From a virus (taxonomy: Duplodnaviria > Heunggongvirae > Uroviricota > Caudoviricetes): 23,444 bases of DNA. Shown in pieces: positions 1 through 23,444 of this stretch. The stretch is from the IMG/VR virus record IMGVR_UViG_3300045988_101337, positions 1 through 23,444 of that record. The stretch is one strand, 5' to 3'. Numbering within the stretch: the first letter of the stretch is position 1; each line of letters opens with the position of its first letter. The notes below the pieces were generated by a model that did no database searches, was not told the origin of the DNA, and was given only the letters and a program-made list of their open reading frames with translations. Both the position numbers and the translations under genes were made by a program.

Positions 1-484
1 CTTCGCGCAAGGGTAGATTGTCAGTACTTTTGCCATTAAGAATCAGTAAGCTGGCGGGAAATTCTGCCATGATCGTATGTGCCTTTATGATTGGTCTGTA
101 GATAGTGTAGAGCAGAAAACAAAAGGTGGAGTCAGAACAGGATGAAAGTCGGAGGATAAAAAGTCAGTTCAAGTATGGAGGATTCAGTGGTTACCACCAG
201 GAGCTTGCAATGGGGACAGCGAATACTAACGGCTGCCACCGATAAATTTCAAAAAAGAGCATATGCCTAATATTCAACCAAACAGTGGCATCTTAAATAT
301 ACTATTCCAAATATATTAAAGCCCCCATGGAGTTACCCTGAAGGGCCTCAATGTCCGTAATTCCTACTTATGTAGGAAATGTTGTACAGAACATTTATTA
401 TAATCCTATTCAATTATAATAATCATGCCATTATTATATTTAAACACTAGAGAGTGTCGTTGGTATTTAATGGGGGAAGGTGAG

Positions 485-802
485 ATGAAAAAGATAGCTG
501 CTATATCATTAATTAGTATTTTTATTGTGTCTGGTTGTGCTGTGCATAATGATGAGACAAGTATCGGTAAATTTGGTCTTGCATATAAAAGTAATATTCA
601 GCGTAAACTCGATAACCAATACTACACCGAAGCCGAAGCTTCTTTAGCCAGGGGCAGAATATCTGGTGCAGAAAATATAGTAAAAAATGATGCAGCCCAT
701 TTCTGTGTTACTCAGGGCAAAAAAATGCAGATAGTTGACCTGAAGACAGAAGGTGCAGGATTACATGGCGTCGCTCGTCTGACATTCAAATGTGGAGAGT
801 GA
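485..802 (+). CDS. yegR: Small host lipoprotein, YegR-like (105 aa); listed ORF 425..802 trimmed to the internal ATG at 485
   Basis: ATG at 485 follows a purine-rich RBS (GGGGGAAGGTGAG). N-terminus MKKIAAISLISIFIVSGC has a signal peptide and lipobox cysteine. It sits immediately outside the attL core, where yegR lies at the E. coli P2 site locI; gene name is from memory. Confidence 0.55.
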   Translation: MKKIAAISLISIFIVSGCAVHNDETSIGKFGLAYKSNIQRKLDNQYYTEAEASLARGRISGAENIVKNDAAHFCVTQGKKMQIVDLKTEGAGLHGVARLTFKCGE

Positions 803-961
803 GAATATTTTTTGGTAAGCGTCAAACATGCGCGTTCTGGTTGTGCTTAGCCGGAACCTGTGCGAGCACGATGCCGTTACGTGAAAGGCATCGTGCTATG
901 AAGGGAGATTCTATCGATGTGGTCAATGGAAGACGGTTACCAGAGATAGGGCTTATGCATA

Positions 962-4657: not shown

Positions 4658-6926
4658 AGCCTCCGGGCGTTTTGTCCCTCCTTCAGCATTTGCTGCAGGC
4701 ACCGGTAAGGCGTTTACCGGTGCTTATGCATGGAACGCGCCACGCGAGGCCGTCGGGCGCGAAAGACCCCTTACACGTGACGAGATGCGTCAGGTGCAAG
4801 GTGTTTTATCCACGATTAACCGCCTGCCTTACTTTTTGCGCTCGCTGTTTACTTCACGCTATGACTACATCCGGCGCAATAAAAGCCCGGTACACGGGTT
4901 TTATTTCCTCACATCCACTTTTCAGCGTCGTTTATGGCCGCGCATTGAGCGTGTGAATCAGCGCCATGAAATGAACACCGACGCGTCGTTACTGTTTCTG
5001 GCAGAGCGTGACCACTATGCGCGCCTGCCGGGAATGAATGACAAGGAGCTGAAAAAGTTTGCTGCCCGTATCTCATCGCAGCTTTTCATGATGTATGAGG
5101 AACTCAGCGATGCCTGGGTGGATGCGCATGGCGAAAAAGAATCGCTGTTTACGGATGAGGCGCAGGCTCACCTCTATGGTCATGTTGCTGGCGCTGCACG
5201 TGCTTTCAATATTTCCCCTCTCTACTGGAAAAAATACCGTAAAGGACAGATGACCACGAGGCAGGCATATTCTGCCATTGCCCGTCTGTTTAACGATGAG
5301 TGGTGGACTCATCAGCTTAAAGGTCAGCGTATGCGCTGGCATGAGGCGTTACTGATTGCTGTCGGGGAGGTGAATAAAGACCGTTCTCCTTATGCCAGTA
5401 AACATGCCATTCGTGATGTGCGTGCGCGCCGCCAGGCAAATCTGGAATTTCTTAAATCGTGTGACCTTGAAAACAGGGAAACCGGCGAGCGCATCGACCT
5501 TATCAGTAAGGTGATGGGAAGTATTTCTAATCCTGAAATTCGCCGGATGGAGCTGATGAACACCATTGCCGGTATTGAGCGTTACGCCGCTGCAGAGGGT
5601 GATGTGGGGATGTTTATCACGCTGACCGCGCCGTCAAAGTATCACCCGACACGTCAGGTCGGAAAAGGCGAAAGTAAAACCGTTCAGCTTAATCACGGCT
5701 GGAACGATGAGGCATTTAATCCAAAGGATGCGCAGCGTTATCTCTGCCGTATCTGGAGCCTGATGCGCACGGCATTCAAGGATAATGATTTACAGGCCTA
5801 CGGTTTGCGTGTCGTCGAGCCACACCACGACGGAACGCCGCACTGGCATATGATGCTTTTTTGTAATCCACGCCAGCGTAACCAGATTATCGAAATCATG
5901 CGTCGCTATGCGCTCAAAGAGGATGGCGACGAAAGAGGAGCCGCGCGAAACCGTTTTCAGGCAAAACATCTTAACCGGGGCGGTGCTGCGGGGTATATCG
6001 CGAAATACATCTCAAAAAATATCGACGGCTATGCACTGGATGGGCAGCTCGATAACGATACCGGCAGACCGCTGAAAGATACTGCCGCGGCTGTTACCGC
6101 ATGGGCGTCAACGTGGCGCATTCCGCAATTTAAAACGGTTGGCCTGCCGACAATGGGGGCTTACCGTGAACTACGCAAATTGCCTCGCGGCGTCAGCATT
6201 GCTGATGAGTTTGACGAGCGCGTCGAGGCTGCACGCGCCGCCGCAGACAGTGGTGATTTTGCGTTGTATATCAGCGCGCAGGGTGGGGCAAATGTTCCGC
6301 GCGATTGTCAGACTGTCAGAGTCGCCCGTAGCCCGTCGGATGACGTTAACGAGTACGAGGAAGAGGTCGAGAGAGTGGTCGGCATTTACGCGCCGCATCT
6401 CGGCGCGCGTCATATTCATATCACCAGAACCACGGACTGGCGCATTGTGCCGAAAGTGCCGGTCGTTGAGCCTTTGACTTTAAAAAGCGGCATCGCCGCG
6501 CCTCGGAGTCCTGTCAATAACTGTGGAAAGCTCACCGGTGGTGATACTTCGTTACCGGCTCCCACACCTTCTGAGCACGCCGCAGCAGTGCTTAATCTGG
6601 TAGATGACGGTGTTATCGAATGGAATGACCCGGAGGTCGTGAGGGCGCTCAGAGGTGCATTAAAACACGGCCTGAGAAGACCAAACCGTCAGCAAAGAAA
6701 CGGAAGCCCGTTAAAACCGCATGAAATAGCGCCATCGGCCAGACTGACCCGGTCTGAACGATTGCAAATCACCCGTATCCGCGTTGACCTTGCTCAGAAC
6801 GGTATCAGGCCGCAGCGATGGGAGCTTGAGGCGCTGGCGCGTGGCGCGACCGTAAATTATGACGGGAAAAAATTCACGTATCCGGTCGCTGATGAGTGGT
6901 CGGGATTCTGGCATCAATTTGAGTAA
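4647..6926 (+). CDS. A: Replication initiation endonuclease A, rolling-circle initiator (about 759 aa); listed ORF 4605..6926 trimmed to the ATG at 4647
   Basis: Large ORF in the P2 A position. Starting at MAVKASGRFVPP gives a length close to P2 A (about 761 aa). The upstream in-frame ATG at 4605 lies inside orf83 and is less likely. It contains the HxH-like metal motif (PHWHMM) and a paired-tyrosine segment (YIAKYISK) expected of rolling-circle initiators. Confidence 0.9.
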   Translation: MAVKASGRFVPPSAFAAGTGKAFTGAYAWNAPREAVGRERPLTRDEMRQVQGVLSTINRLPYFLRSLFTSRYDYIRRNKSPVHGFYFLTSTFQRRLWPRIERVNQRHEMNTDASLLFLAERDHYARLPGMNDKELKKFAARISSQLFMMYEELSDAWVDAHGEKESLFTDEAQAHLYGHVAGAARAFNISPLYWKKYRKGQMTTRQAYSAIARLFNDEWWTHQLKGQRMRWHEALLIAVGEVNKDRSPYASKHAIRDVRARRQANLEFLKSCDLENRETGERIDLISKVMGSISNPEIRRMELMNTIAGIERYAAAEGDVGMFITLTAPSKYHPTRQVGKGESKTVQLNHGWNDEAFNPKDAQRYLCRIWSLMRTAFKDNDLQAYGLRVVEPHHDGTPHWHMMLFCNPRQRNQIIEIMRRYALKEDGDERGAARNRFQAKHLNRGGAAGYIAKYISKNIDGYALDGQLDNDTGRPLKDTAAAVTAWASTWRIPQFKTVGLPTMGAYRELRKLPRGVSIADEFDERVEAARAAADSGDFALYISAQGGANVPRDCQTVRVARSPSDDVNEYEEEVERVVGIYAPHLGARHIHITRTTDWRIVPKVPVVEPLTLKSGIAAPRSPVNNCGKLTGGDTSLPAPTPSEHAAAVLNLVDDGVIEWNDPEVVRALRGALKHGLRRPNRQQRNGSPLKPHEIAPSARLTRSERLQITRIRVDLAQNGIRPQRWELEALARGATVNYDGKKFTYPVADEWSGFWHQFE

Positions 6927-7015
6927 GGATCTCATCTATACAGTATAAGTAGTTTTGACTGTAATTGATTGTTTTTTATATGGTTGCATGCATTAAATCT
7001 ACGTCAATATCATTA

Positions 7016-7024
7016 TGTTATAAT
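7016..7024 (+). promoter_or_regulatory. Candidate extended -10 promoter (TGnTATAAT) for the cargo operon
   Basis: TGTTATAAT at 7016-7024, about 30 bp upstream of the ATG at 7053, in an AT-rich intergenic region after A. There is no good -35, which is consistent with the extended -10 class. Confidence 0.35.
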
Positions 7025-7052
7025 GCATTACTTAAAAATGTTGGAGATAAAA

Positions 7053-7244
7053 ATGTTAAAGCCTGCAGATGTTGTTTGTTTGAAAAGCGGTGGATTTAAA
7101 ATGACTGTATCTGACTCTACTGAAACTCATGCTAAATGTATTTGGCATGATAAAGAAGGAGTTTTGCACGAGGAGTCATTCTCCATTGATTTACTGGAAA
7201 TAGCAGAGAGTAAAAGTGGTATGCTTTGTCGTCCACGTAAGTGA
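7053..7244 (+). CDS. Small DUF2158/YodC-like protein (63 aa), first gene of the cargo cassette; listed ORF 6969..7244 trimmed
   Basis: ATG at 7053 follows a GGAGATAAAA RBS. The N-terminus MLKPADVVCLKSGGFKMTV resembles the conserved start of YodC/DUF2158 small proteins as I recall it. AT-rich. Confidence 0.5.
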   Translation: MLKPADVVCLKSGGFKMTVSDSTETHAKCIWHDKEGVLHEESFSIDLLEIAESKSGMLCRPRK

Positions 7245-7271
7245 ATCATAATAAAATTCACGGGGGAAAGT

Positions 7272-7952
7272 ATGAAACAATACAGCGAATTAGAAAACAA
7301 TGTTAAGAGATTCATTGTTGAGCATGAAAAAGGGATTTCTATTGATGATATTCATCATAAGTTCCGGATGAAGGATGGTCAGAATCGCAAGATGGCAGAT
7401 TATCTTATTAATAATAAAAAGATAATTTTGGAGATGAAAAGTCTTTTTTCTGACAGGGTCAAGAATGTCAATGATAAACTGAATGAGTTGGTTAAAACTG
7501 ATAGTTGGCTTGCAAAAAACTGGCATGGTGCTATTCATTTAGAAGAGTTGATAAAAAGACACCCAGACTCAAAGCGATTTAGAAATGATATAATGAACTT
7601 TGCTTATGAAAATATTAAAACAAAGATAGTTAAGGAAGCTAATAAGCAAATAAATGCAACAAAGGATGTTTTGGATTTAAATGACTCGATTGGCGGGTTG
7701 ATTTTGTTAAATGATAATGTCTTTTCACATGAGTCTAATTATTTGTCAGATGAAATATTATATTTGCTAGGCACAAAGAGATATTCGAGTGTTGAGTTTG
7801 TGGTTTATATTGCAAAATTGATTGATAAACAGGTTGATGTTTGTGTGCTACTTGACAGTCAATCTAAAAATAAAAATTATATTGAATGGTATATGAATAA
7901 TGTTTTTTTATTGAACTGGGCGTCTTTTAATAAATATGCAATAAAGATGTAG
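7272..7952 (+). CDS. Uncharacterised 226-aa protein in the variable A-cos locus (candidate defence protein)
   Basis: Long clean ORF with a GGGGGAAAG RBS, 27 bp after the small ORF and so probably co-transcribed. AT-rich and Lys/Asn-rich. No P2 counterpart. A possible D ... ExK arrangement (ADYLINNKKIILEMKS) is only a motif-level hint of a PD-(D/E)xK nuclease. Confidence 0.6.
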   Translation: MKQYSELENNVKRFIVEHEKGISIDDIHHKFRMKDGQNRKMADYLINNKKIILEMKSLFSDRVKNVNDKLNELVKTDSWLAKNWHGAIHLEELIKRHPDSKRFRNDIMNFAYENIKTKIVKEANKQINATKDVLDLNDSIGGLILLNDNVFSHESNYLSDEILYLLGTKRYSSVEFVVYIAKLIDKQVDVCVLLDSQSKNKNYIEWYMNNVFLLNWASFNKYAIKM

Positions 7953-8271
7953 TGGTGTGGATGGATATGAAATGAGTCAACCAAGATGCACCTTGGTCAG
8001 TAATCTCATGTGAGATACCACATATAACACCAAAAGTGTCAGGTTGATGGCCATTGTTCACCGTTTACAGCAGATTATGGTCAACGAAAATCTGACGCCT
8101 GACGAGCTGGTCGGGTGTGCCGAAATAGTCTGGGATAATTACGGGCGGTTTAACTATATCGGTCAGTCCAGAGTTGCGCCACCACCACGCAGACGATAGA
8201 GAACGCCGCCAGTCGTGAAACTTGTTTTCAGGCTGGCGGGGTTGAACAACGAGCGAAGTGAGGCGTTAGCA

Positions 8272-9213
8272 TTAAGTTAATTTTAATGAATGGTACTCTA
8301 TCGAGCTGATTGTAGATGCGATATATTTACGATCATTTACAGAGAGTATTGCCGCTAGTAGACGACATACCAGAGCCTGCATTTGTAGCAATATATCGCT
8401 ACCATATTGACAATCATTGATACTAGAGAAACCAAGCGGTTGCCCATTAAAAATGGCTTCATGAAAATTATCATTGCGTATAACTGAAACATTACATTCA
8501 TCTGTTGCCCATGACGGGATTTTTACACCGTAATTTTCGCACATCCAATACACTCTATTTTGATGAGATGGTTTTTTCTCTTTAATGACTTTATCCCTTT
8601 CATCCCATGCTATAGCAAAACAGCAATCAAGAGCCATATAAAGATACTGGAATTTCTCAAAGGAAAGGTATAGTGGGTTATGTGACAGGAATAGGGAGTG
8701 TATCACCGCAGCTATTCTTTTAATGGAGCGATCATCTTTTTGTTTGTCTTTTATATAGTTAAGTGCTAGCTCTATTACTTCTTTTTCAGAGCATCCAACG
8801 AGAATAAAGTCGGTTAACTTAGTGGGCTTGATAGTGGTTGCATCAAGAAAACCAGCGTCAGTGGTTGTCAATCTTATACCCTTGAAAAAAGAGAGGCACC
8901 ACACAACAAAGTTGAGAGTTTCTAACGAGGATGTGTTTTTTAATTTTAGTGTGTGCGTTTTGGGCATGCCGAATACTCGGTAACTATAAGGCATTGTGCA
9001 TGTGTCACCATTAAGGTTATATACCTTTCGATTCCCAGGGTATATCCAACCATTAACAACGTTTTTATCATTGTTAATACGTTCCACGTTCTCAATAAGA
9101 CCGGGTAAAGTACGCAAAGAAAATTGTTCAGTCTCAATGTTAACTTCTACTGGATAGTATCCAAACTCCGAAATAATCTCATTTGGTTGCTGTTCGTCAA
9201 CTTCACCTTGCAT
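8272..9213 (-). CDS. Uncharacterised 313-aa protein with a C-terminal RNxxxH (HEPN-like) motif; candidate abortive-infection or defence effector occupying the P2 old position
   Basis: Clean 313-aa ORF on the minus strand with a GGAGA RBS upstream of the ATG at 9213. AT-rich. It contains RNDNFH (R-x4-H) near the C-terminus and a second R-x5-H (RIAAVIH). It is convergent with the 226-aa gene. No P2 homologue is recognisable. Confidence 0.6.
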   Translation of the reverse strand: MQGEVDEQQPNEIISEFGYYPVEVNIETEQFSLRTLPGLIENVERINNDKNVVNGWIYPGNRKVYNLNGDTCTMPYSYRVFGMPKTHTLKLKNTSSLETLNFVVWCLSFFKGIRLTTTDAGFLDATTIKPTKLTDFILVGCSEKEVIELALNYIKDKQKDDRSIKRIAAVIHSLFLSHNPLYLSFEKFQYLYMALDCCFAIAWDERDKVIKEKKPSHQNRVYWMCENYGVKIPSWATDECNVSVIRNDNFHEAIFNGQPLGFSSINDCQYGSDILLQMQALVCRLLAAILSVNDRKYIASTISSIEYHSLKLT

Positions 9214-9451
9214 AACTTTCTCCGTTCAAAAACAGGCACGATAATTCTCGTAAGCCTATCATGTTCGCAAAGTATCCATACCTGTGGATTTTGTAAATTT
9301 AAGTTGATTTGTCATTAAATAAGCCGTTGCATGCAACAAGTGAATGTTTTTGCATGCGTCGGGGATGTCCGTTCAGGCTGCGTGCGGTCAGGACTGGTGC
9401 GGATCCATAGTATCTATGCAACTGCATTAAAACCGCCCCATGAAGCGGGCG

Positions 9452-9470
9452 GGCGAGGCGGGGAAAGCAC
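9452..9470. other. cos site (P2-type 19-nt cohesive end region)
   Basis: GGCGAGGCGGGGAAAGCAC matches the P2/186 cohesive end as I recall it. It lies about 80 bp beyond the 3' end of portal gene Q, as in P2. Confidence 0.6.
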
Positions 9471-9522
9471 TGCGCGCTGTTTTGTGCGGTGGTGAGTGTG
9501 TGAGGGCGTGATGACGGGGTGT

Positions 9523-9544
9523 AAAAAAGCCGCCCGCAGGCGGC
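9523..9544 (-). terminator. Rho-independent terminator after Q (minus strand)
   Basis: Minus-strand reading gives GCCGCC-TGCG-GGCGGC followed by TTTTTT, immediately after the Q stop codon. Confidence 0.55.
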
Positions 9545-9549
9545 GATGT

Positions 9550-10584
9550 TCAGCCGTTGTCAGTGTCCAGTGAGTAGTTTTTAAAGCTGATGACCTCCTG
9601 ACCGAGCCAGCCGTTTATCTCGCGGATCCTGTCCTGTAACGGGATAAGCTCATTGCGGACAAAGACCTTTGCCACTTTCTCAATATCTCCCAGTGACCCG
9701 ACGTTCTCCGGCTTGCCGCCCATCAACTGAAAGGGGATACGGTGCGCGTCCAGCAGGTCAGCGGCGCTGGCTTTTTTGATATTAAAAAAATCGTCCTTCG
9801 TTGCCACTTCACTGAGCGGGATAATTTTAATGCCGTCAGCTTTCCCCTGCGGGGCATAGAGAAACAGATTTTTAAAGTTGTTGCGACCTTTCGACTTAAC
9901 CATGTTTTCGCGAAGCATTTCGATATCGTTGCGATCCTGCACGGCATCGGTGACGTACATGATGTATCCGGCATGTGCGCCATTTTCGTAATACTTGCGG
10001 CGGAACAGCGTAGCTGATTCATTCAGCCAGGCAGAATTAAGGGCGCTGAGATATTCCGGCAGGCCGTACAGCTCCTGATTAATATCCGGCTCCAGCAGGT
10101 GAAACACGGAGCCGGGCGCGAAAGGTGTCGGCTCGTTGAAGGACGGCACCCACCAGTAAACATCCTCCTCAACACCACGGCGGGTATATTTTGCCGGTGA
10201 GGTTTCCAGTCTGATGACCTTACCGGTGGTGCTGTAGCGCTTTTCCAGAAACGCATTACCGAACACCAGAAAATCCAGCACAAAGCGGCTGAAATCCTGC
10301 TGGGAAAGCCACGGGTGCGGAATAAACGTTGAAGCCAGAATATTACGTTTGACGTAAATCGGTGAGCTGTGATGTACGGCAGCACGCAGGCTTTTTGCCA
10401 GACCGGTAAAGCTGACCGGTGGCTCATACCATCTGCCGTTACTGATGCACTCGACGTAATCCAGAATGTCACGGCGGTCGAGTACCGGCACCGGCTCACC
10501 AAAGGTGAATGCCTCCATTTTCGGGGCGCTGGCGGTGATTGTTTTTGCCGCAGGTTGCGGTGTTTTCCCTTTTTTCTTGCTCAT
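9550..10584 (-). CDS. Q: Portal protein (344 aa)
   Basis: 344-aa ORF, the same length as P2 gpQ. It is translationally coupled to P (start and stop overlap at 10584) and adjacent to cos. Confidence 0.93.
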   Translation of the reverse strand: MSKKKGKTPQPAAKTITASAPKMEAFTFGEPVPVLDRRDILDYVECISNGRWYEPPVSFTGLAKSLRAAVHHSSPIYVKRNILASTFIPHPWLSQQDFSRFVLDFLVFGNAFLEKRYSTTGKVIRLETSPAKYTRRGVEEDVYWWVPSFNEPTPFAPGSVFHLLEPDINQELYGLPEYLSALNSAWLNESATLFRRKYYENGAHAGYIMYVTDAVQDRNDIEMLRENMVKSKGRNNFKNLFLYAPQGKADGIKIIPLSEVATKDDFFNIKKASAADLLDAHRIPFQLMGGKPENVGSLGDIEKVAKVFVRNELIPLQDRIREINGWLGQEVISFKNYSLDTDNG

Positions 10585-18285: not shown

Positions 18286-18730
18286 GTTTAAGCGTTTTGA
18301 AGACCGGCTGACCGGACTTATTGAATCGCTGTCACCGTCAGGGCGTCGGCGACTGAGCGCCGAACTGGCGAAACGTCTGCGTCAGAATCAGCAGCGTCGG
18401 GTGATGGCACAGAAAGCCCCGGACGGCACACCCTATGCGCCACGCCAGCAGCAGAGCGCCAGAAAAAAGACCGGTCGCGTTAAGCGAAAAATGTTTGCGA
18501 AACTTATCACCAGTCGTTTTTTGCATATCCGCGCCAGCCCTGAACAGGCAGCAATGGAGTTTTACGGCGGGAAGTCGCCGAAAATCGCCAGTGTGCATCA
18601 GTTCGGTCTTTCGGAAGAAAACCGGAAAGACGGTAAGAAAATTGATTATCCGGCGCGTCCTCTGCTCGGCTTTACCGGTGAGGATGTGCAGATGATTGAA
18701 GAGATTATCCTGGCTCACCTCGACCGTTAG
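18278..18730 (+). CDS. S: Tail completion protein S (150 aa)
   Basis: 150-aa ORF, the same length as P2 gpS, in the syntenic position. Confidence 0.85.
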   Translation: MNEFKRFEDRLTGLIESLSPSGRRRLSAELAKRLRQNQQRRVMAQKAPDGTPYAPRQQQSARKKTGRVKRKMFAKLITSRFLHIRASPEQAAMEFYGGKSPKIASVHQFGLSEENRKDGKKIDYPARPLLGFTGEDVQMIEEIILAHLDR

Positions 18731-18796
18731 TTGTGCCATTCCCGACACCTCATCGTCACATTGCCGCCGGTATGACCCGGCGGCATCCTTCCCGTT

Positions 18797-19432
18797 ATGA
18801 ACACTCTCGCAAATATTCAGGAACTCGCGCGCGCACTGCGCAACATGATACGCACCGGCATTGTCGTCGAAACCGACCTTAACGCCGGTCGCTGCCGAGT
18901 GCAGACCGGCGGCATGTGCACCGACTGGCTTCAGTGGCTGACCCATCGCGCCGGACGTTCGCGCACATGGTGGGCACCTTCCGTGGGGGAACAGGTGCTG
19001 ATTCTGGCCGTGGGCGGTGAACTCGACACGGCGTTCGTTCTGCCGGGGATTTATTCCGGCGATAACCCTGCGCCGTCTGCGTCGGCTGATGCCCTGCATA
19101 TCCGTTTCCCTGACGGGGCGGTGATTGAGTATGAACCCGAAACCAGTGCACTCACGGCAAGCGGAATTAAAACGGCCAGCGTGACGGCTTCTGATTCTGT
19201 TACTGCCACGGTACCGGTGGTCACGGTGAAAGCGTCAACCCGTGTCACCCTGGACACACCGGAAGTGGTCTGCACTAACAAACTGACTACCGGCACGCTG
19301 GAAGTGCAGAGGGGCGGGACGATGCGCGGCAACATTGAACACACCGGCGGTGAACTCTCATCAAACGGTAAGGTACTGCATACCCACAAACACCCCGGCG
19401 ACAGCGGCGGCACAACCGGGAGTCCTTTATGA
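18797..19432 (+). CDS. V: Baseplate central spike protein (211 aa)
   Basis: 211-aa ORF, the same length as P2 gpV, first in the V-W-J-I baseplate operon. Confidence 0.9.
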   Translation: MNTLANIQELARALRNMIRTGIVVETDLNAGRCRVQTGGMCTDWLQWLTHRAGRSRTWWAPSVGEQVLILAVGGELDTAFVLPGIYSGDNPAPSASADALHIRFPDGAVIEYEPETSALTASGIKTASVTASDSVTATVPVVTVKASTRVTLDTPEVVCTNKLTTGTLEVQRGGTMRGNIEHTGGELSSNGKVLHTHKHPGDSGGTTGSPL

Positions 19433-20689: not shown

Positions 20690-21212
20690 TTCGCGACTGC
20701 TGCCGACCGGCTCATCACCGCTTGAAGTCGCCGCCGCAAAAGCCTGTGCGGAAATTGAAAAAACGCCGGTCAGTATTCGTGAGCTGTGGAACCCGGACAC
20801 CTGCCCGGCAAATCTGCTGCCGTGGCTGGCGTGGGCCTTTTCGGTCGACAGGTGGGATGAAAAGTGGCCGGAAGCGACAAAACGCGCCGTTATCCGCGAT
20901 GCCTATTTCATCCACTGTCATAAAGGCACTATAGGTGCAATCCGGCGTGTGGTGGAGCCGCTGGGCTATCTCATCAACGTGACGGAGTGGTGGGAAAACA
21001 GTGACCCGCCAGGCACCTTCCGGCTTGATATTGGTGTACTGGAAAGCGGCATCACAGAGGCAATGTATCAGGAAATGGAACGGCTTATTGCTGATGCCAA
21101 ACCTGCAAGCCGTCATCTTATTGGCCTGAACATTACCCGGGACATTCCCGGCTACCTGTTCGCCGGTGGTGTGGCTTACGACGGCGATGTAATTACGGTT
21201 TACCCCGGATAA
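20682..21212 (+). CDS. I: Baseplate wedge protein I (176 aa)
   Basis: 176-aa ORF, the same length as P2 gpI, overlapping the J stop. Confidence 0.9.
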   Translation: MSDSRLLPTGSSPLEVAAAKACAEIEKTPVSIRELWNPDTCPANLLPWLAWAFSVDRWDEKWPEATKRAVIRDAYFIHCHKGTIGAIRRVVEPLGYLINVTEWWENSDPPGTFRLDIGVLESGITEAMYQEMERLIADAKPASRHLIGLNITRDIPGYLFAGGVAYDGDVITVYPG

Positions 21213-21222
21213 GTGAGGAATA

Positions 21223-23444
21223 ATGAGCACAAAATTCAAAACCGTTATCACCACTGCCGGTGCAGCAAAGCTGGCAGCGGCAACCGCACCGGGAGGGCGG
21301 AAGGTCAACATTACCACGATGGCCGTCGGGGATGGCGGTGGTAAATTGCCTGTCCCGGATGCCGGACAGACCGGGCTTATCCACGAAGTCTGGCGACATG
21401 CGCTGAACAAAATCAGCCAGGACAAACGAAACAGTAATTATATTATCGCAGAGCTGGTTATTCCGCCGGAGGTGGGCGGTTTCTGGATGCGTGAGCTTGG
21501 CCTGTACGATGATGCGGGAACGTTAATTGCCGTGGCGAACATGGCCGAAAGTTATAAACCCGCACTTGCCGAAGGCTCAGGGCGTTCGCAGACCTGCCGC
21601 ATGGTCATCATCGTCAGCAGTGTGGCCTCAGTGGAGCTGACCATTGACACCACAACGGTGATGGCGACGCAGGATTACGTTGATGACAAAATTGCAGAGC
21701 ACGAACAGTCACGACGTCACACGGACGCCTCGCTGACCGCAAAAGGTTTTACTCAGTTAAGCAGTGCGACCAACAGCACGTCTGAAACACTGGCCGCAAC
21801 GCCGAAAGCGGTAAAGGCCGCGTATGACCTTGCTAACGGGAAATATACCGCACAGGACGCCACCATAGCGCGAAAAGGCCTTGTCCAGCTCAGTAGTGCC
21901 ACCAACAGCACGTCTGAAACGCTCGCCGCAACGCCGAAAGCGGTAAAGGCAGCATATGACCTTGCTAACGGGAAATACACTGCACAGGACGCCACCACAA
22001 CGCGAAAAGGCCTTGTTCAGCTCAGTAGCGCCACCAACAGTGATTCTGAAACGCTTGCGGCAACGCTAAAGGCGGTAAAGGCTGCGTATGACCTTGCTAA
22101 CGGGAAATACACTGCACAGGATGCCACCACCGCGCGAAAAGGTCTTGTCCAGCTAAGTAGCGCCACCAACAGTGATTCTGAAACACTGGCCGCAACACCA
22201 AAAGCGGTGAAGTCTGCCTATGACAATGCTGAAAAACGTCTTCAGAAAGATCAGAATGGTGCGGATATTCCGGGAAAGGATACCTTCACGAAAAATATCG
22301 GTGCCTGTCGTGCTTATAGCGGCGCTTTGAGTACTGAAGCCGGAAACTGGACAACCGCTCAGTTTATTGAATGGCTGGATTCCCGTGGTGCATTTAATCA
22401 TCCGTACTGGATGTGCAAAGGCTCCTGGTCATATGCAAATAACAAAATCATTACGGATACCGGATGTGGTGATATCCACCTGGCTGGTTGTGTCGTCGAG
22501 GTCATGGGAATTAAATCTGCAATCACTATCCGAGTGACCACGCCGACAACATCAAGTGGTGGCGGTACAACCAGCGCGCAATTCACTTACATTAATCATG
22601 GGGACGGCTACTCCCCCGGCTGGCGTCGTGACTGGAATCGTCAGGGCGACGAAATGACCGGAACGATTAATCAGGACGGCGGTAGCCAGAATGCCTATAT
22701 GTCTACGGCCTTATGTTCAGGCACCAGAGGCGGCAAAAAATATCTCAGAAAGTTTCGTGGTGGAGAAGGAGACACTGTCTGGCATGAAACAGTACAGGGC
22801 GGGGTAGTTCGCTGGGCGACTGGTAATACTGATGCTCAGGAAGAATTATCACTCAGCTCCGCTTATGGTCTCCGTTCAAGAGGTGAGATTACATCACTCA
22901 GTGCTAATGGTCTGCGCATTGCTTATGGCAATTATGGATTCTTTATCAGGAATGATGGCGGCAGCACATATTTAATGCTGACGGCCTCTGGCGATAAATT
23001 TGGGACATGGAACGGTTTAAGGCCGCTGACTATCAATAACGCCAATGGCGGAGTGTCAATGGGGCATGGCCTGAGTGTTACAGGTGATATTGTCTCAAGT
23101 ACCAAAGTACGTGCCGGTAGCGGGAAAAAGTTCACGGTCAGCAGCAGCAATACATCCACGAAGGAAGCCGCATTCAATTTGTGGGGAAACTCAAGTCGTC
23201 CGGTGGTGGCTGAATTAGGTGATGATGCAGGCTGGCATTTTTACAGTCAGAGAAATACAGATAACAGCATCACTTTTGCTGTTAACGGGCAGGTATCACC
23301 ATCTAACTATAGTAATTTTGATTCACGCTATGTCCGGGATATCCGGCTTGGTGGTGCTGCCACATACAAACCTGCGAACAATGGCATGACATGGACACAT
23401 CAGGCACCGTCCGGGTGTGTATATTCCGGCATTATTGTTCAGGA
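21223..23444 (+). CDS. H: Tail fibre protein H (partial; continues beyond the 3' end of the window)
   Basis: ATG at 21223 follows a GTGAGGAATA RBS. The open frame runs uninterrupted to the window end (over 740 codons). The N-terminus (MSTKFKTVITTAGAAKLAAATAPG) and the repeat motif are P2 H-like from memory. Minus-strand ORFs in this span are frame shadows. Confidence 0.9.
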   Translation, partial: MSTKFKTVITTAGAAKLAAATAPGGRKVNITTMAVGDGGGKLPVPDAGQTGLIHEVWRHALNKISQDKRNSNYIIAELVIPPEVGGFWMRELGLYDDAGTLIAVANMAESYKPALAEGSGRSQTCRMVIIVSSVASVELTIDTTTVMATQDYVDDKIAEHEQSRRHTDASLTAKGFTQLSSATNSTSETLAATPKAVKAAYDLANGKYTAQDATIARKGLVQLSSATNSTSETLAATPKAVKAAYDLANGKYTAQDATTTRKGLVQLSSATNSDSETLAATLKAVKAAYDLANGKYTAQDATTARKGLVQLSSATNSDSETLAATPKAVKSAYDNAEKRLQKDQNGADIPGKDTFTKNIGACRAYSGALSTEAGNWTTAQFIEWLDSRGAFNHPYWMCKGSWSYANNKIITDTGCGDIHLAGCVVEVMGIKSAITIRVTTPTTSSGGGTTSAQFTYINHGDGYSPGWRRDWNRQGDEMTGTINQDGGSQNAYMSTALCSGTRGGKKYLRKFRGGEGDTVWHETVQGGVVRWATGNTDAQEELSLSSAYGLRSRGEITSLSANGLRIAYGNYGFFIRNDGGSTYLMLTASGDKFGTWNGLRPLTINNANGGVSMGHGLSVTGDIVSSTKVRAGSGKKFTVSSSNTSTKEAAFNLWGNSSRPVVAELGDDAGWHFYSQRNTDNSITFAVNGQVSPSNYSNFDSRYVRDIRLGGAATYKPANNGMTWTHQAPSGCVYSGIIVQ
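21739..22230 (+). repeat. Four in-frame tandem repeats of 132 bp (44 aa) inside tail fibre gene H; the last copy is partial
   Basis: Copies begin at 21739, 21871, 22003 and 22135. The protein unit is RKGLVQLSSATNS(T/D)SETLAATPKAVKAAYDLANGKYTAQDATT. Copies differ at synonymous sites. The internally duplicated minus-strand ORF 21753..21998 is a by-product of this repeat. Confidence 0.85.

Follow-up and report, generated by a model that had tools for sequence, protein, structure and literature searches.

Positions 22230–23444 of the DNA analysed here (a stretch of 23,444 nucleotides, hereafter the window) probably encode the distal two-thirds of a gpH-type tail fibre that is intact, predicted to be functional and built from separately exchangeable modules, in a P2-like (Peduovirus) prophage of E. 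coli; we put the probability of this reading at about 0.8. Fibres of the P2 gpH type are trimers that bind the host surface (the LPS core in the case of P2). Alignment to P2 H shows H to be a mosaic whose breakpoints are clear, and full-length collinear identity between the two is not seen. Everything distal to the shaft repeats differs from P2, which does not fit the proposal, made in an earlier sequence-only reading, that an internal module had been swapped into a P2 gene.

Overall structure and context of the H gene

The H open reading frame begins with an ATG at 21223 and continues for 740 codons without a stop to the end of the window. It follows homologues of V, W, J and I, and this gene order matches the P2-like late operon V-W-J-I-H-G; positions 962–21948 show 97% identity to P2. 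The last 32 H codons and the chaperone gene G, which lie beyond the window, were read from a near-identical prophage of E. coli SBF45 (locus L005) that shows four mismatches to the window in 7,215 nt, none of them in 22230–23444. In this prophage H has 772 codons, 740 of which are within the window, ends with the conserved RPVQKYINGTWYNVAQV and is followed directly by an intact G. The completed protein contains the conserved distal domain ending in ...RP(V/I)QKYINGTWYNVAQV, and its distal end aligns with those of P2, P88, vB_YpM_46 and Mu S. The 100%-identical stretch is named 'tail fiber protein' in RefSeq (WP_089633333.1). The modules of H are as follows.

21223..23444, + strand: H-type tail-fibre gene of a P2-like prophage; open frame downstream of the V-W-J-I homologues, cut by the window end
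21223..21675, + strand: N-terminal baseplate-attachment domain, aa 1–151, P2 backbone (Pfam PF12571 Phage_tail_fib, E 1.3e-58)
21730..22230, + strand: four 44-aa (132-bp) Phage_fiber_2 shaft repeats (Pfam PF03406, four stretches, E 6.8e-77)
22204..22305, + strand: conserved junction block AVKSAYDNAEKRLQKDQNGADIPGKDTFTKNIGA, homologous to the Mu Sc/Sv joint
22240..22680, + strand: Mu S'/P1 S'-like domain, H aa ~340–486 (PDB 8ju3, Mu S', residues 177–332; domain E 1.1e-69)
22634..23124, + strand: segment shared with vB_YpM_46 (~97% nt), with high identity only to vB_YpM_46-type fibres
about 22840–23103, + strand: T4 gp34-type/Mu S-type trimerisation domain, aa 540–627 (PF21446, 5yvq, 4uxe)
23125..23352, + strand: block homologous to P2 H, Mu S and T4 gp34 (KKFTVSSSNTSTK...NFDSRYVRDIRLG), aa 635–710, from alignments
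23322..23328, + strand: crossover from vB_YpM_46-type body to fiAA91-ss-type tip, from informative sites, inside the DSRYV codons
23353..23444, + strand: start of the fibre tip (GAATYKPANNGMTWTHQAPSGCVYSGIIVQ...), fiAA91-ss type (98% nt to the H genes of fiAA91-ss and NC_070905)

The GC content of 22230–23444 is 48.6%, whereas the H N-terminus has 56.2% and the late genes Q to I have 56.7%; GC3 is 45% compared with 57%, in agreement with the AT-richer composition claimed earlier. This stretch is AT-richer than its late-gene surroundings; the early and cargo regions of the window are lower in GC still. An Rfam scan of the whole window produced no matches. Promoter and terminator sites in 21000–23444 were no commoner than in shuffled sequence and the antisense ORFs (62–82 aa) inside H are therefore taken as chance.

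Proximal modules and the junction block

The PF12571 match to the H N-terminus spans the full-length profile, and blastn against canonical P2 H (NC_001895, 669 aa) gives 96.7% nucleotide identity over 21223–21948. The shaft repeats are detected by TRF as a tandem period of 132 in 3.5 copies at 21769–22224. Residues 134–174 of PDB entries 8ju3 and 5yvq align to the junction block, which holds, within 22285–22305, a degenerate Gin/Cin-type crossover half-site (TTCACGAAAAATATCGGT) recognised by aligning it with the gix region of Mu S and with the 'Mu-like inversion crossover site' annotated in 186 K.

The homology of this post-repeat junction to the Mu Sc/Sv joint, with half of a crossover-like sequence kept, and the presence in the related phage P88 of an invertase, together with alternative fibre and chaperone genes in inverted orientation, would fit a host-range switch like that of the Mu G segment, in which a DNA invertase exchanges the fibre ends. 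This explanation is highly improbable, as the near-identical SBF45 locus lacks an invertase gene, and the interval from G to FI contains only an HNH-domain gene, with neither a second fibre end nor a chaperone in inverted orientation. Inverted repeats between H and FI are limited to short, imperfect ones (20–36 nt, 72–80% complementary) and include no paired crossover sites. No gix match within three mismatches was found in the whole window and the half-site is therefore regarded as a relic only. As a candidate, the invertible system of the Mu G segment or P1 C segment was rejected: the Sv' homology is present, but paired sites, an invertase and an inverted fibre end are not.

The stretch without similarity to P2 H

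No blastn match to P2 H was obtained from ~22230 to 23124, with repeat cross-matches only up to 22224, and at the protein level H aa 330–620 produced no significant match to P2 H (E > 1). The P2-dissimilar part of H comprises aa ~340–620 (about 22240–23085), and the claim that the sequence after the repeats is unlike P2 H is borne out. From these blastn and protein-level alignments, the boundaries proposed earlier (22230 and ~23120) are therefore right to within a few bases.

Domains were assigned by direct sequence matches to solved structures. H aa 340–486 shows 76.9% amino-acid identity to P1 Sv' 215–361 and 66.9% to Mu Sv' 12–171, which is the proximal half only of the variable Sv' part of the Mu/P1 fibres; the S' tip is not common to H and Mu/P1 S' (33% identity over the last 84 aa). 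The domain contains four cysteines (aa 362, 398, 415 and 423). At the nucleotide level it is 72% identical to Mu Sv', 88–93% to the H genes of fiAA91-ss and NC_070905 and ~98% to vB_YpM_46. From ~22633 the identity to fiAA91-ss and NC_070905 falls to the background of a forced alignment (7–52% in 60-nt windows), whereas that to vB_YpM_46 stays mostly at 95–100%, with a dip to 87–90% at 22783–22872.

The second half of the stretch contains a match to Pfam PF21446 (Gp34_trimer) over aa 540–604 (E 1.3e-24, 87.3 bits compared with a cut-off of 27). Structure matches to this trimerisation domain include PDB 5yvq residues 260–343 (E 6.5e-28) and 4uxe, and residues of 4uxe and 5nxf align. An AlphaFold2 monomer of the 418-aa distal part, predicted without an alignment, has a mean pLDDT of 30.6 and a pTM of 0.19, and because of this low confidence the agreement between breakpoints and domain boundaries is drawn from the matches to solved structures. 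Judged by these matches, 22230–23100 appears to consist of shaft-type modules, corresponding to the proximal part of Mu/P1 Sv' and to the T4 gp34 trimerisation domain.

The P2-like block, the crossover and the tip

The observation that the sequence becomes P2 H-like again from ~23120 stands at the amino-acid level, where KKFTVSSSNTSTK...RYVRDIRLG (aa 635–710) is identical to P2 H at 60 of 76 positions (79%); H aa 621–772 is 56% identical to P2 H 526–669, and T4 gp34 matches H aa ~655–697. It does not extend to a return of the P2 backbone. By blastn 23125–23333 is 72.7% identical to P2 H in nucleotides, compared with 96.7% in the N-terminal part, and 23125 to ~23322 is 97–100% identical to vB_YpM_46. 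Because of these values, the block at 23125..23352 is best read as old homology to P2.

The crossover at 23322–23328 falls within the conserved NFDSRYVRD block. Informative sites upstream of it are vB_YpM_46-type by 76 to 1 and NC_070905-type downstream by 97 to 1; the breakpoint that fits best is placed after 23322, and the next informative site is at 23328. This second, sharper crossover was overlooked in the earlier reading. The tip beyond it (23353..23444) is 35–43% identical in nucleotides to P2 and vB_YpM_46. The last 30 codons of the window (23353–23442, GAATYKPANNGMTWTHQAPSGCVYSGIIVQ), likewise unmentioned before, are unlike P2 H, and in the SBF45 locus the tip runs for 32 more codons past the window. 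Region HR2 of the P88 fibre (aa 716–746) aligns with H aa ~709–752, that is, with the very end of the window and beyond. Swapping HR2 alone altered the host range of P88 (PMC5285337). A second and larger hypervariable region of P88, HR1 (aa 517–695), overlaps the P2-dissimilar stretch of H, and the same study left room for it to have a binding role (PMC5285337).

Chaperone G and its covariation with the tip

A matching chaperone gene had been expected downstream of the window, and a PF02413 (Caudo_TAP) gene of the P2 G/Mu U type is found directly 3' of H in the SBF45 locus (7316–7843 of that locus, E 9.2e-34). Its product is 74% identical to P2 G. The tip and G of SBF45 both differ from those of P2, which argues against an internal module swapped into an otherwise P2-like gene.

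The N-terminal domain of G co-varies with the fibre tip across eight loci of common ancestry, including that of SBF45. The window-type tip is shared (98–100%) by four fibres of 692–919 aa, the G N-terminal domains of which are 96–100% identical, whereas those of the four fibres with a P2-type tip are only 66–70% identical to them; the C-terminal halves of G are more conserved (75–87%). This covariation is consistent with the model of North et al. (2019), in which the chaperone is modular, as PMC9608196 represents it.

Distribution in E. coli genomes

Among 5,426 complete E. coli genomes surveyed, the window-type H N-terminus is present in 636 and the distal region (at least 80% of 22634–23444), annotated there as tail fibre, in 187. 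The canonical P2 central region is present in 103 complete E. coli genomes and, because the window-type distal region is found in 187, P2 H is not the reference state. Many of the 187 genomes, from unrelated sources, contain the full body-plus-tip join at 94–100% identity. Among the matches sampled, those to the body only stop at 23333–23351, and the remaining ~175 partial matches are mostly to the tip alone, from 23312. The modules of H thus appear to assort independently in nature.

Abrupt shifts in composition and identity and a window that stops inside the gene might also be produced by decay, as in a pseudogene of a defective prophage, or by a chimeric artefact such as an assembly join, in which case this would not be a working fibre gene. 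The chance of this is very small, given the 740 uninterrupted codons, the completion of H to 772 aa in SBF45 with an intact G behind it, the recurrence of the body-plus-tip join in many of the 187 complete genomes and the close intact homologues of each module in plaque-forming phages. The intact frame, the SBF45 completion and the genome distribution contradict it already.

Proposed explanation and meaning

The sequence-only reading took the non-P2 stretch at 22230–23100 for a receptor-binding module that confers a host range different from that of P2. No other block that lacks similarity to P2 is as large, the part of Mu/P1 S' to which its first half is homologous is variable and associated with host range, and some fibres have lateral binding sites, which would favour such a role. 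The overlap of this stretch with HR1 of P88 (PMC5285337) points the same way. However, the Mu/P1 S' homology is limited to the proximal half of Sv' and does not include the tip, the second half is a trimerisation domain of the type found in gp34, a proximal, non-binding T4 fibre subunit, and in P88 the exchange of HR2 was sufficient to alter host range (PMC5285337). The stretch also occurs in nature with two different tips, as part of two tip/chaperone pairings, in E. coli and in a phage that plates on Y. pestis. A receptor-binding role for this stretch is therefore unlikely.

The preferred reading remains that of a fibre of separately exchangeable modules, for which the homologies, breakpoints, population distribution and tip/G covariation are observed directly; from them we infer the mode of recombination, the binding role of each module and any difference in host range. 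The order would be a P2-backbone baseplate-attachment domain and four shaft repeats, then a Mu/P1 S'-like domain and a gp34/Mu S-type trimerisation domain, and finally a P2/Mu-type distal beta domain and a short tip. The joints would be short blocks that many fibre genes have in conserved form, namely the repeats, QNGADIPGKDTF, PGWRRD and NFDSRYVRD, and homologous recombination there between co-resident or co-infecting phages could shuffle the modules. In the latest exchange, at 23322–23328, a fiAA91-ss-type tip may have been gained together with its cognate chaperone G, the variable N-terminal domain of which would bind and fold the trimer tip. The tip, equivalent to HR2 of P88, would be the main determinant of the surface structure bound, probably the LPS core, and the P2-dissimilar segment would mostly set shaft length and trimer registration. 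It is doubtful that the Mu/P1 S'-like domain (aa 340–486) serves as a second, lateral receptor-binding site besides the tip; if it did, independent shuffling of body and tip would give combinatorial host ranges among P2-like prophages.

Modular, recombining tail-fibre genes are reportedly common to P2, Mu, P1, lambda and the T-even phages. The same modular pattern is described in PMC7460101 and PMC5285337, and distal fibre exchange changes host range in P2-like phages, both in P88 (PMC5285337) and in engineered P2 chimeras (PMC9942202, PMC9594776). Modular fibre mosaicism is thus already known as a means by which phages diversify host recognition, and this allele is common in E. coli and correctly annotated in RefSeq, leaving little significance beyond bookkeeping. 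The practical value lies in a clean natural junction map (22204–22305, ~22633 and 23322–23328) and in a natural 'experiment' on body versus tip, with one body carrying two tips and one tip on four bodies, which could guide engineers of P2/P4 delivery particles to fusion points and matching chaperones.

Comparison with known fibres

P2 gpH (NP_046775) shares with the window H its gene position, the N-terminal domain (96.7% nt) and the conserved C-terminal end, the last ~150 aa being homologous (56% aa), but has two repeats instead of four, an unrelated central ~280 aa and another type of tip and G. A similar pattern is reported for gpH of the plague-diagnostic phage L-413C, which, according to Garcia et al. 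(2008) as cited in PMC7460101, has a P2-like N-terminus (207 aa, at least 91%), a foreign mosaic middle and a weakly P2-like C-terminus (137 aa, 59%), read there as recombination affecting host specificity; its middle modules may differ from those of the window H.

Mu S' (PDB 8ju3; Mori et al., 2024, Virology 593:110017) and P1 S' are 67–77% identical to H aa 340–486, and the joint upstream of this domain is homologous to the Sc/Sv joint of Mu S, but the window H has no invertible segment or invertase and does not share the distal S' tip (33% aa). The P88 fibre (KP063541; PMC5285337) has a homologous distal domain, but its central part is Mu S-like, its tip is of the P2 type and shares 37% identity with that of the window type, and an invertase cassette lies downstream of it.

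The H genes of fiAA91-ss (NC_022750) and of the 'Peduovirus P2' isolate NC_070905 have the same type of tip and G (95–98% nt from 23281 to the end of G; tip 98% aa, G 95–97% aa) and the same Mu S'-like domain (88–93% nt), whereas the sequence from ~22633 to ~23280 is unrelated and fiAA91-ss has three repeats compared with four. The closest relative of the body is the fibre of Yersinia phage vB_YpM_46 (NC_055845, YP_010107789; Peduovirus YPM46; recorded host Y. pestis EV76), which is 98.3% identical in amino acids over H aa 1–710 and 97.2% in nucleotides over 21223–23350 and matches the window H in its four repeats, its Mu S'-like and gp34-type domains and its P2-like block. It differs after RLG, where its tip is of the P2 type (TRVVQTMQKGVMYEKAGH...) and only 37% identical to the window-type tip, and in the N-terminal domain of its G, which shares 69% identity with its window-type counterpart.

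Module structure of the tail fibre

A frame opened by ATG at 21223 and stop-free for 740 codons to the end of the window lies directly 3' of homologues of the P2 baseplate genes V, W, J and I. Positions 962–21948 are 97% identical to P2 at the nucleotide level, indicating that the window derives from a P2-like prophage. Given this position and similarity, 22230–23444 is assigned to the distal part of a gpH-type tail-fibre gene (H), and every testable feature of such fibres was found in the region. Short antisense ORFs inside H lacked support and were rejected as genes; no Rfam family matched across the whole window, and promoter- or terminator-like sites in 21000–23444 were not in excess of shuffled sequence.

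The rest of the gene is supplied by a prophage of Escherichia coli SBF45 (NZ_CP067232), which overlaps the window by 7,215 bases with four mismatches, all outside 22230–23444. In SBF45, H encodes 772 residues and is followed after three bases by the chaperone gene G, encoding a 175-residue Caudo_TAP protein (PF02413, E = 9.2e-34).

Modules of the H tail fibre (residues of H)
1–151, + strand: Phage_tail_fib domain (Pfam)
170–340, + strand: four Phage_fiber_2 repeats (Pfam), 132-bp repeats at window 21730–22230
328–361 (22204–22305), + strand: joint homologous to the constant/variable joint of Mu S (alignment)
340–486, + strand: Mu S'/P1 S'-like domain, 66.9% to Mu Sv' and 76.9% to P1 Sv' (Sv', the variable part of the S' fibre)
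540–627, + strand: T4 gp34-type trimerisation domain (PF21446, 87 bits)
635–710, + strand: block common to P2 H, Mu S and T4 gp34 (sequence match)
711–772, + strand: tip, with only its first 30 codons inside the window

Residues 134–174 of PDB entries 8ju3 and 5yvq align to the joint, and the 'Mu-like inversion crossover site' annotated in 186 K aligns there too. The following domain matches the solved Mu S' structure (8ju3) with a domain E-value of 1.1e-69, the homology being confined to the proximal half of Sv' and the S' tip not being shared. The trimerisation domain also matches Mu S residues 260–343 in 5yvq. The Mu S'-like domain of this extracellular fibre carries a cluster of four cysteines (residues 362, 398, 415 and 423; window 22306–22491), the first three matched by Mu S' cysteines in the 8ju3 alignment, and a fifth lies at residue 498. 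The Phage_fiber_2 repeats number four in the window, two in P2 and three in fiAA91-ss, in fibres with otherwise near-identical N-terminal parts; shaft length presumably varies accordingly.

Comparison with P2 H

Against canonical P2 H (NC_001895), 21223–21948 is 96.7% identical at the nucleotide level, matches between 21948 and 22224 are repeat cross-matches only, and no nucleotide alignment was found from ∼22230 to 23124. Residues 330–620 likewise have no significant protein match in P2 H, and residues 621–772 align at 56%. The GC content of 22230–23444 is 48.6% (GC3 45%) versus 56–57% (GC3 57%) in the H N-terminus and late genes. The block quoted in the sequence-only reading, from KKFTVSSSNTSTK to RYVRDIRLG (23125–23352), is 79% identical to P2 H at the protein level. 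The sequence-only reading, which had described an AT-richer stretch unlike P2 H after the repeats and a return to P2-like sequence from about 23120, is thus confirmed as an observation, with coordinates correct to within a few bases and a mosaic alignment rather than full-length collinear identity.

Its interpretation as a swapped module is partly supported: the gene is mosaic with respect to P2 H, but not as a cassette between P2 flanks. The seemingly P2-like block is only 72.7% identical to P2 at the nucleotide level (23125–23333) but 97–100% identical to the Yersinia phage vB_YpM_46; it is not P2 backbone. Since all sequence distal to the repeats, including the chaperone gene, differs from P2, the P2-flanked picture is inaccurate.

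Breakpoints and the chaperone

The H of vB_YpM_46 is 98.3% identical to that of the window over residues 1–710 (97.2% at the nucleotide level over 21223–23350). The H genes of fiAA91-ss and of the 'Peduovirus P2' isolate NC_070905 share 21223–22633 with the window, with identity falling from 98% to ∼78% near 22330; between ∼22633 and ∼23280 they are unrelated to it, and identity stands at 95–98% from 23281 to the end of G. Three-way informative-site analysis places a switch from vB_YpM_46 type to fiAA91 type between 23322 and 23328, a second crossover that the sequence-only reading had missed. The informative sites divide 76 versus 1 upstream and 1 versus 97 downstream, although many upstream sites fall where NC_070905 is not truly alignable and the Fisher P value therefore overstates the evidence; the switch itself is unambiguous. 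It lies inside the codons for NFDSRYVRD, a motif that scarcely varies among P2, P88, Mu S and the other aligned fibres.

The G found downstream in SBF45 is of the matching type, being 97% identical to that of NC_070905 and 95% to that of fiAA91-ss, but only 74–76% to those of P2 and vB_YpM_46. Across eight loci, the window-type tip is shared at 98–100% by four fibres of 692, 736, 772 and 919 residues, whose G N-terminal domains are 96–100% identical among themselves; those accompanying four P2-type tips are only 66–70% identical to this group. The C-terminal halves of G are better conserved (75–87%). This pattern agrees with the modular chaperone model of North et al. (2019), as relayed in PMC9608196, which assigns tip binding to a variable N-domain and trimerisation to a conserved C-domain.

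The H N-terminus of the window occurs in 636 of 5,426 complete E. coli genomes, and 187 carry at least 80% of 22634–23444 at 94–100% identity, chromosomal in every case; the window allele is therefore a frequent variant in nature. Most of the 187 have the full body-plus-tip combination in the rows sampled, and body-only matches among them end at 23333–23351. The remaining ∼175 partial matches are mostly of the tip alone, from 23312. Across the population, the junction coincides with the one derived from three sequences. For the canonical P2 central region, 103 of the genomes reach a coverage of 80% or more.

Host range

Adsorption is set by the fibres of the P2 family, and exchange of the distal part with its cognate chaperone retargets P2 particles (PMC9594776, PMC9942202). 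In the P2-like phage P88, host range shifted when hypervariable region HR2 (residues 716–746) alone was replaced, an effect seen down to the level of single residues (PMC5285337). This region aligns with residues ∼709–752 of the window H, corresponding to the tip starting at 23353; the tip and G are therefore considered the most likely specificity determinant, and 22230–23100 would be mainly shaft. The larger variable region of P88, HR1, overlaps this latter stretch and may also have a role (PMC5285337). Y. pestis EV76 is the host on record for vB_YpM_46, whose body is the same but whose tip is of the P2 type.

The tip (window 23326–23444 with 7097–7309 of the SBF45 locus) shares ∼60% identity with the short tail fibre of phiTE, a flagellotropic Pectobacterium phage, over the last 72 residues of that protein (PDB 9cuy chain c sequence, E = 3.6e-20), in a part of that fibre not resolved experimentally (PMC11972413).

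Accessory loci

Positions 6900–9250, at the P2 tin/old accessory position between the A-gene region and the portal gene Q, are strongly AT-rich (GC 33–40%) and, judged by position, could be accessory or anti-phage cargo. ORF 6969–7244 encodes a DUF2158 protein; ORFs 7272–7952 (+, 226 residues) and 8272–9213 (−, 313 residues) gave no Pfam or PADLOC match. The S and V homologues are only 67 bp apart (18730–18797), and the window therefore lacks the nonessential P2 orf30 (786 bp, opposite strand), which is likewise missing in fiAA91-ss and present in P2 and vB_YpM_46. Between G and FI in the SBF45 locus, at the accessory site that corresponds to P2 fun(Z), the opposite strand of 8042–9838 (∼600 bp 3' of the window end) encodes a 598-residue protein. 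Its C-terminal HNH_2 domain is borderline and its PADLOC matches to HNH/type II restriction enzymes are weak; a 34-nt imperfect inverted repeat flanks its gene (7896–7929 and 10008–10041). Window 1–961 (GC ∼42%) has no P2 match, matches phage vB_EcoM-720R8 and may be an accessory gene beside the integrase or an attachment-site flank; its ORF 425–802 had no Pfam hit.

Relation to known fibres

An invertible switch of the Mu/P1 type was rejected, as no gix site was found in the region and no invertase or inverted alternative genes at the locus. TTCACGAAAAATATCGGT at 22285–22305 is similar, over the left half and core, to both Mu gix and the annotated 186 K crossover site, and lies at the homologous codons; its right half is unrelated and the invertase absent. 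It is probably a relic of invertible-segment ancestry of this fibre module. The original P2 H/G sequence of Haggard-Ljungquist and colleagues from 1992 reportedly revealed fibre segments common to P2, Mu, P1, lambda and T-even phages.

The fibre is of a known kind, and public genomes already contain it under a correct annotation. The present analysis adds the precise junctions, the crossover at 23322–23328 and the shift of the probable host-range cassette from 22230–23100 to the tip and chaperone. A close precedent is gpH of L-413C, which, as PMC7460101 cites Garcia et al. (2008), has a foreign, mosaic middle between an N-terminus that resembles P2 and a C-terminus that does so only weakly, a pattern ascribed there to recombination affecting specificity.
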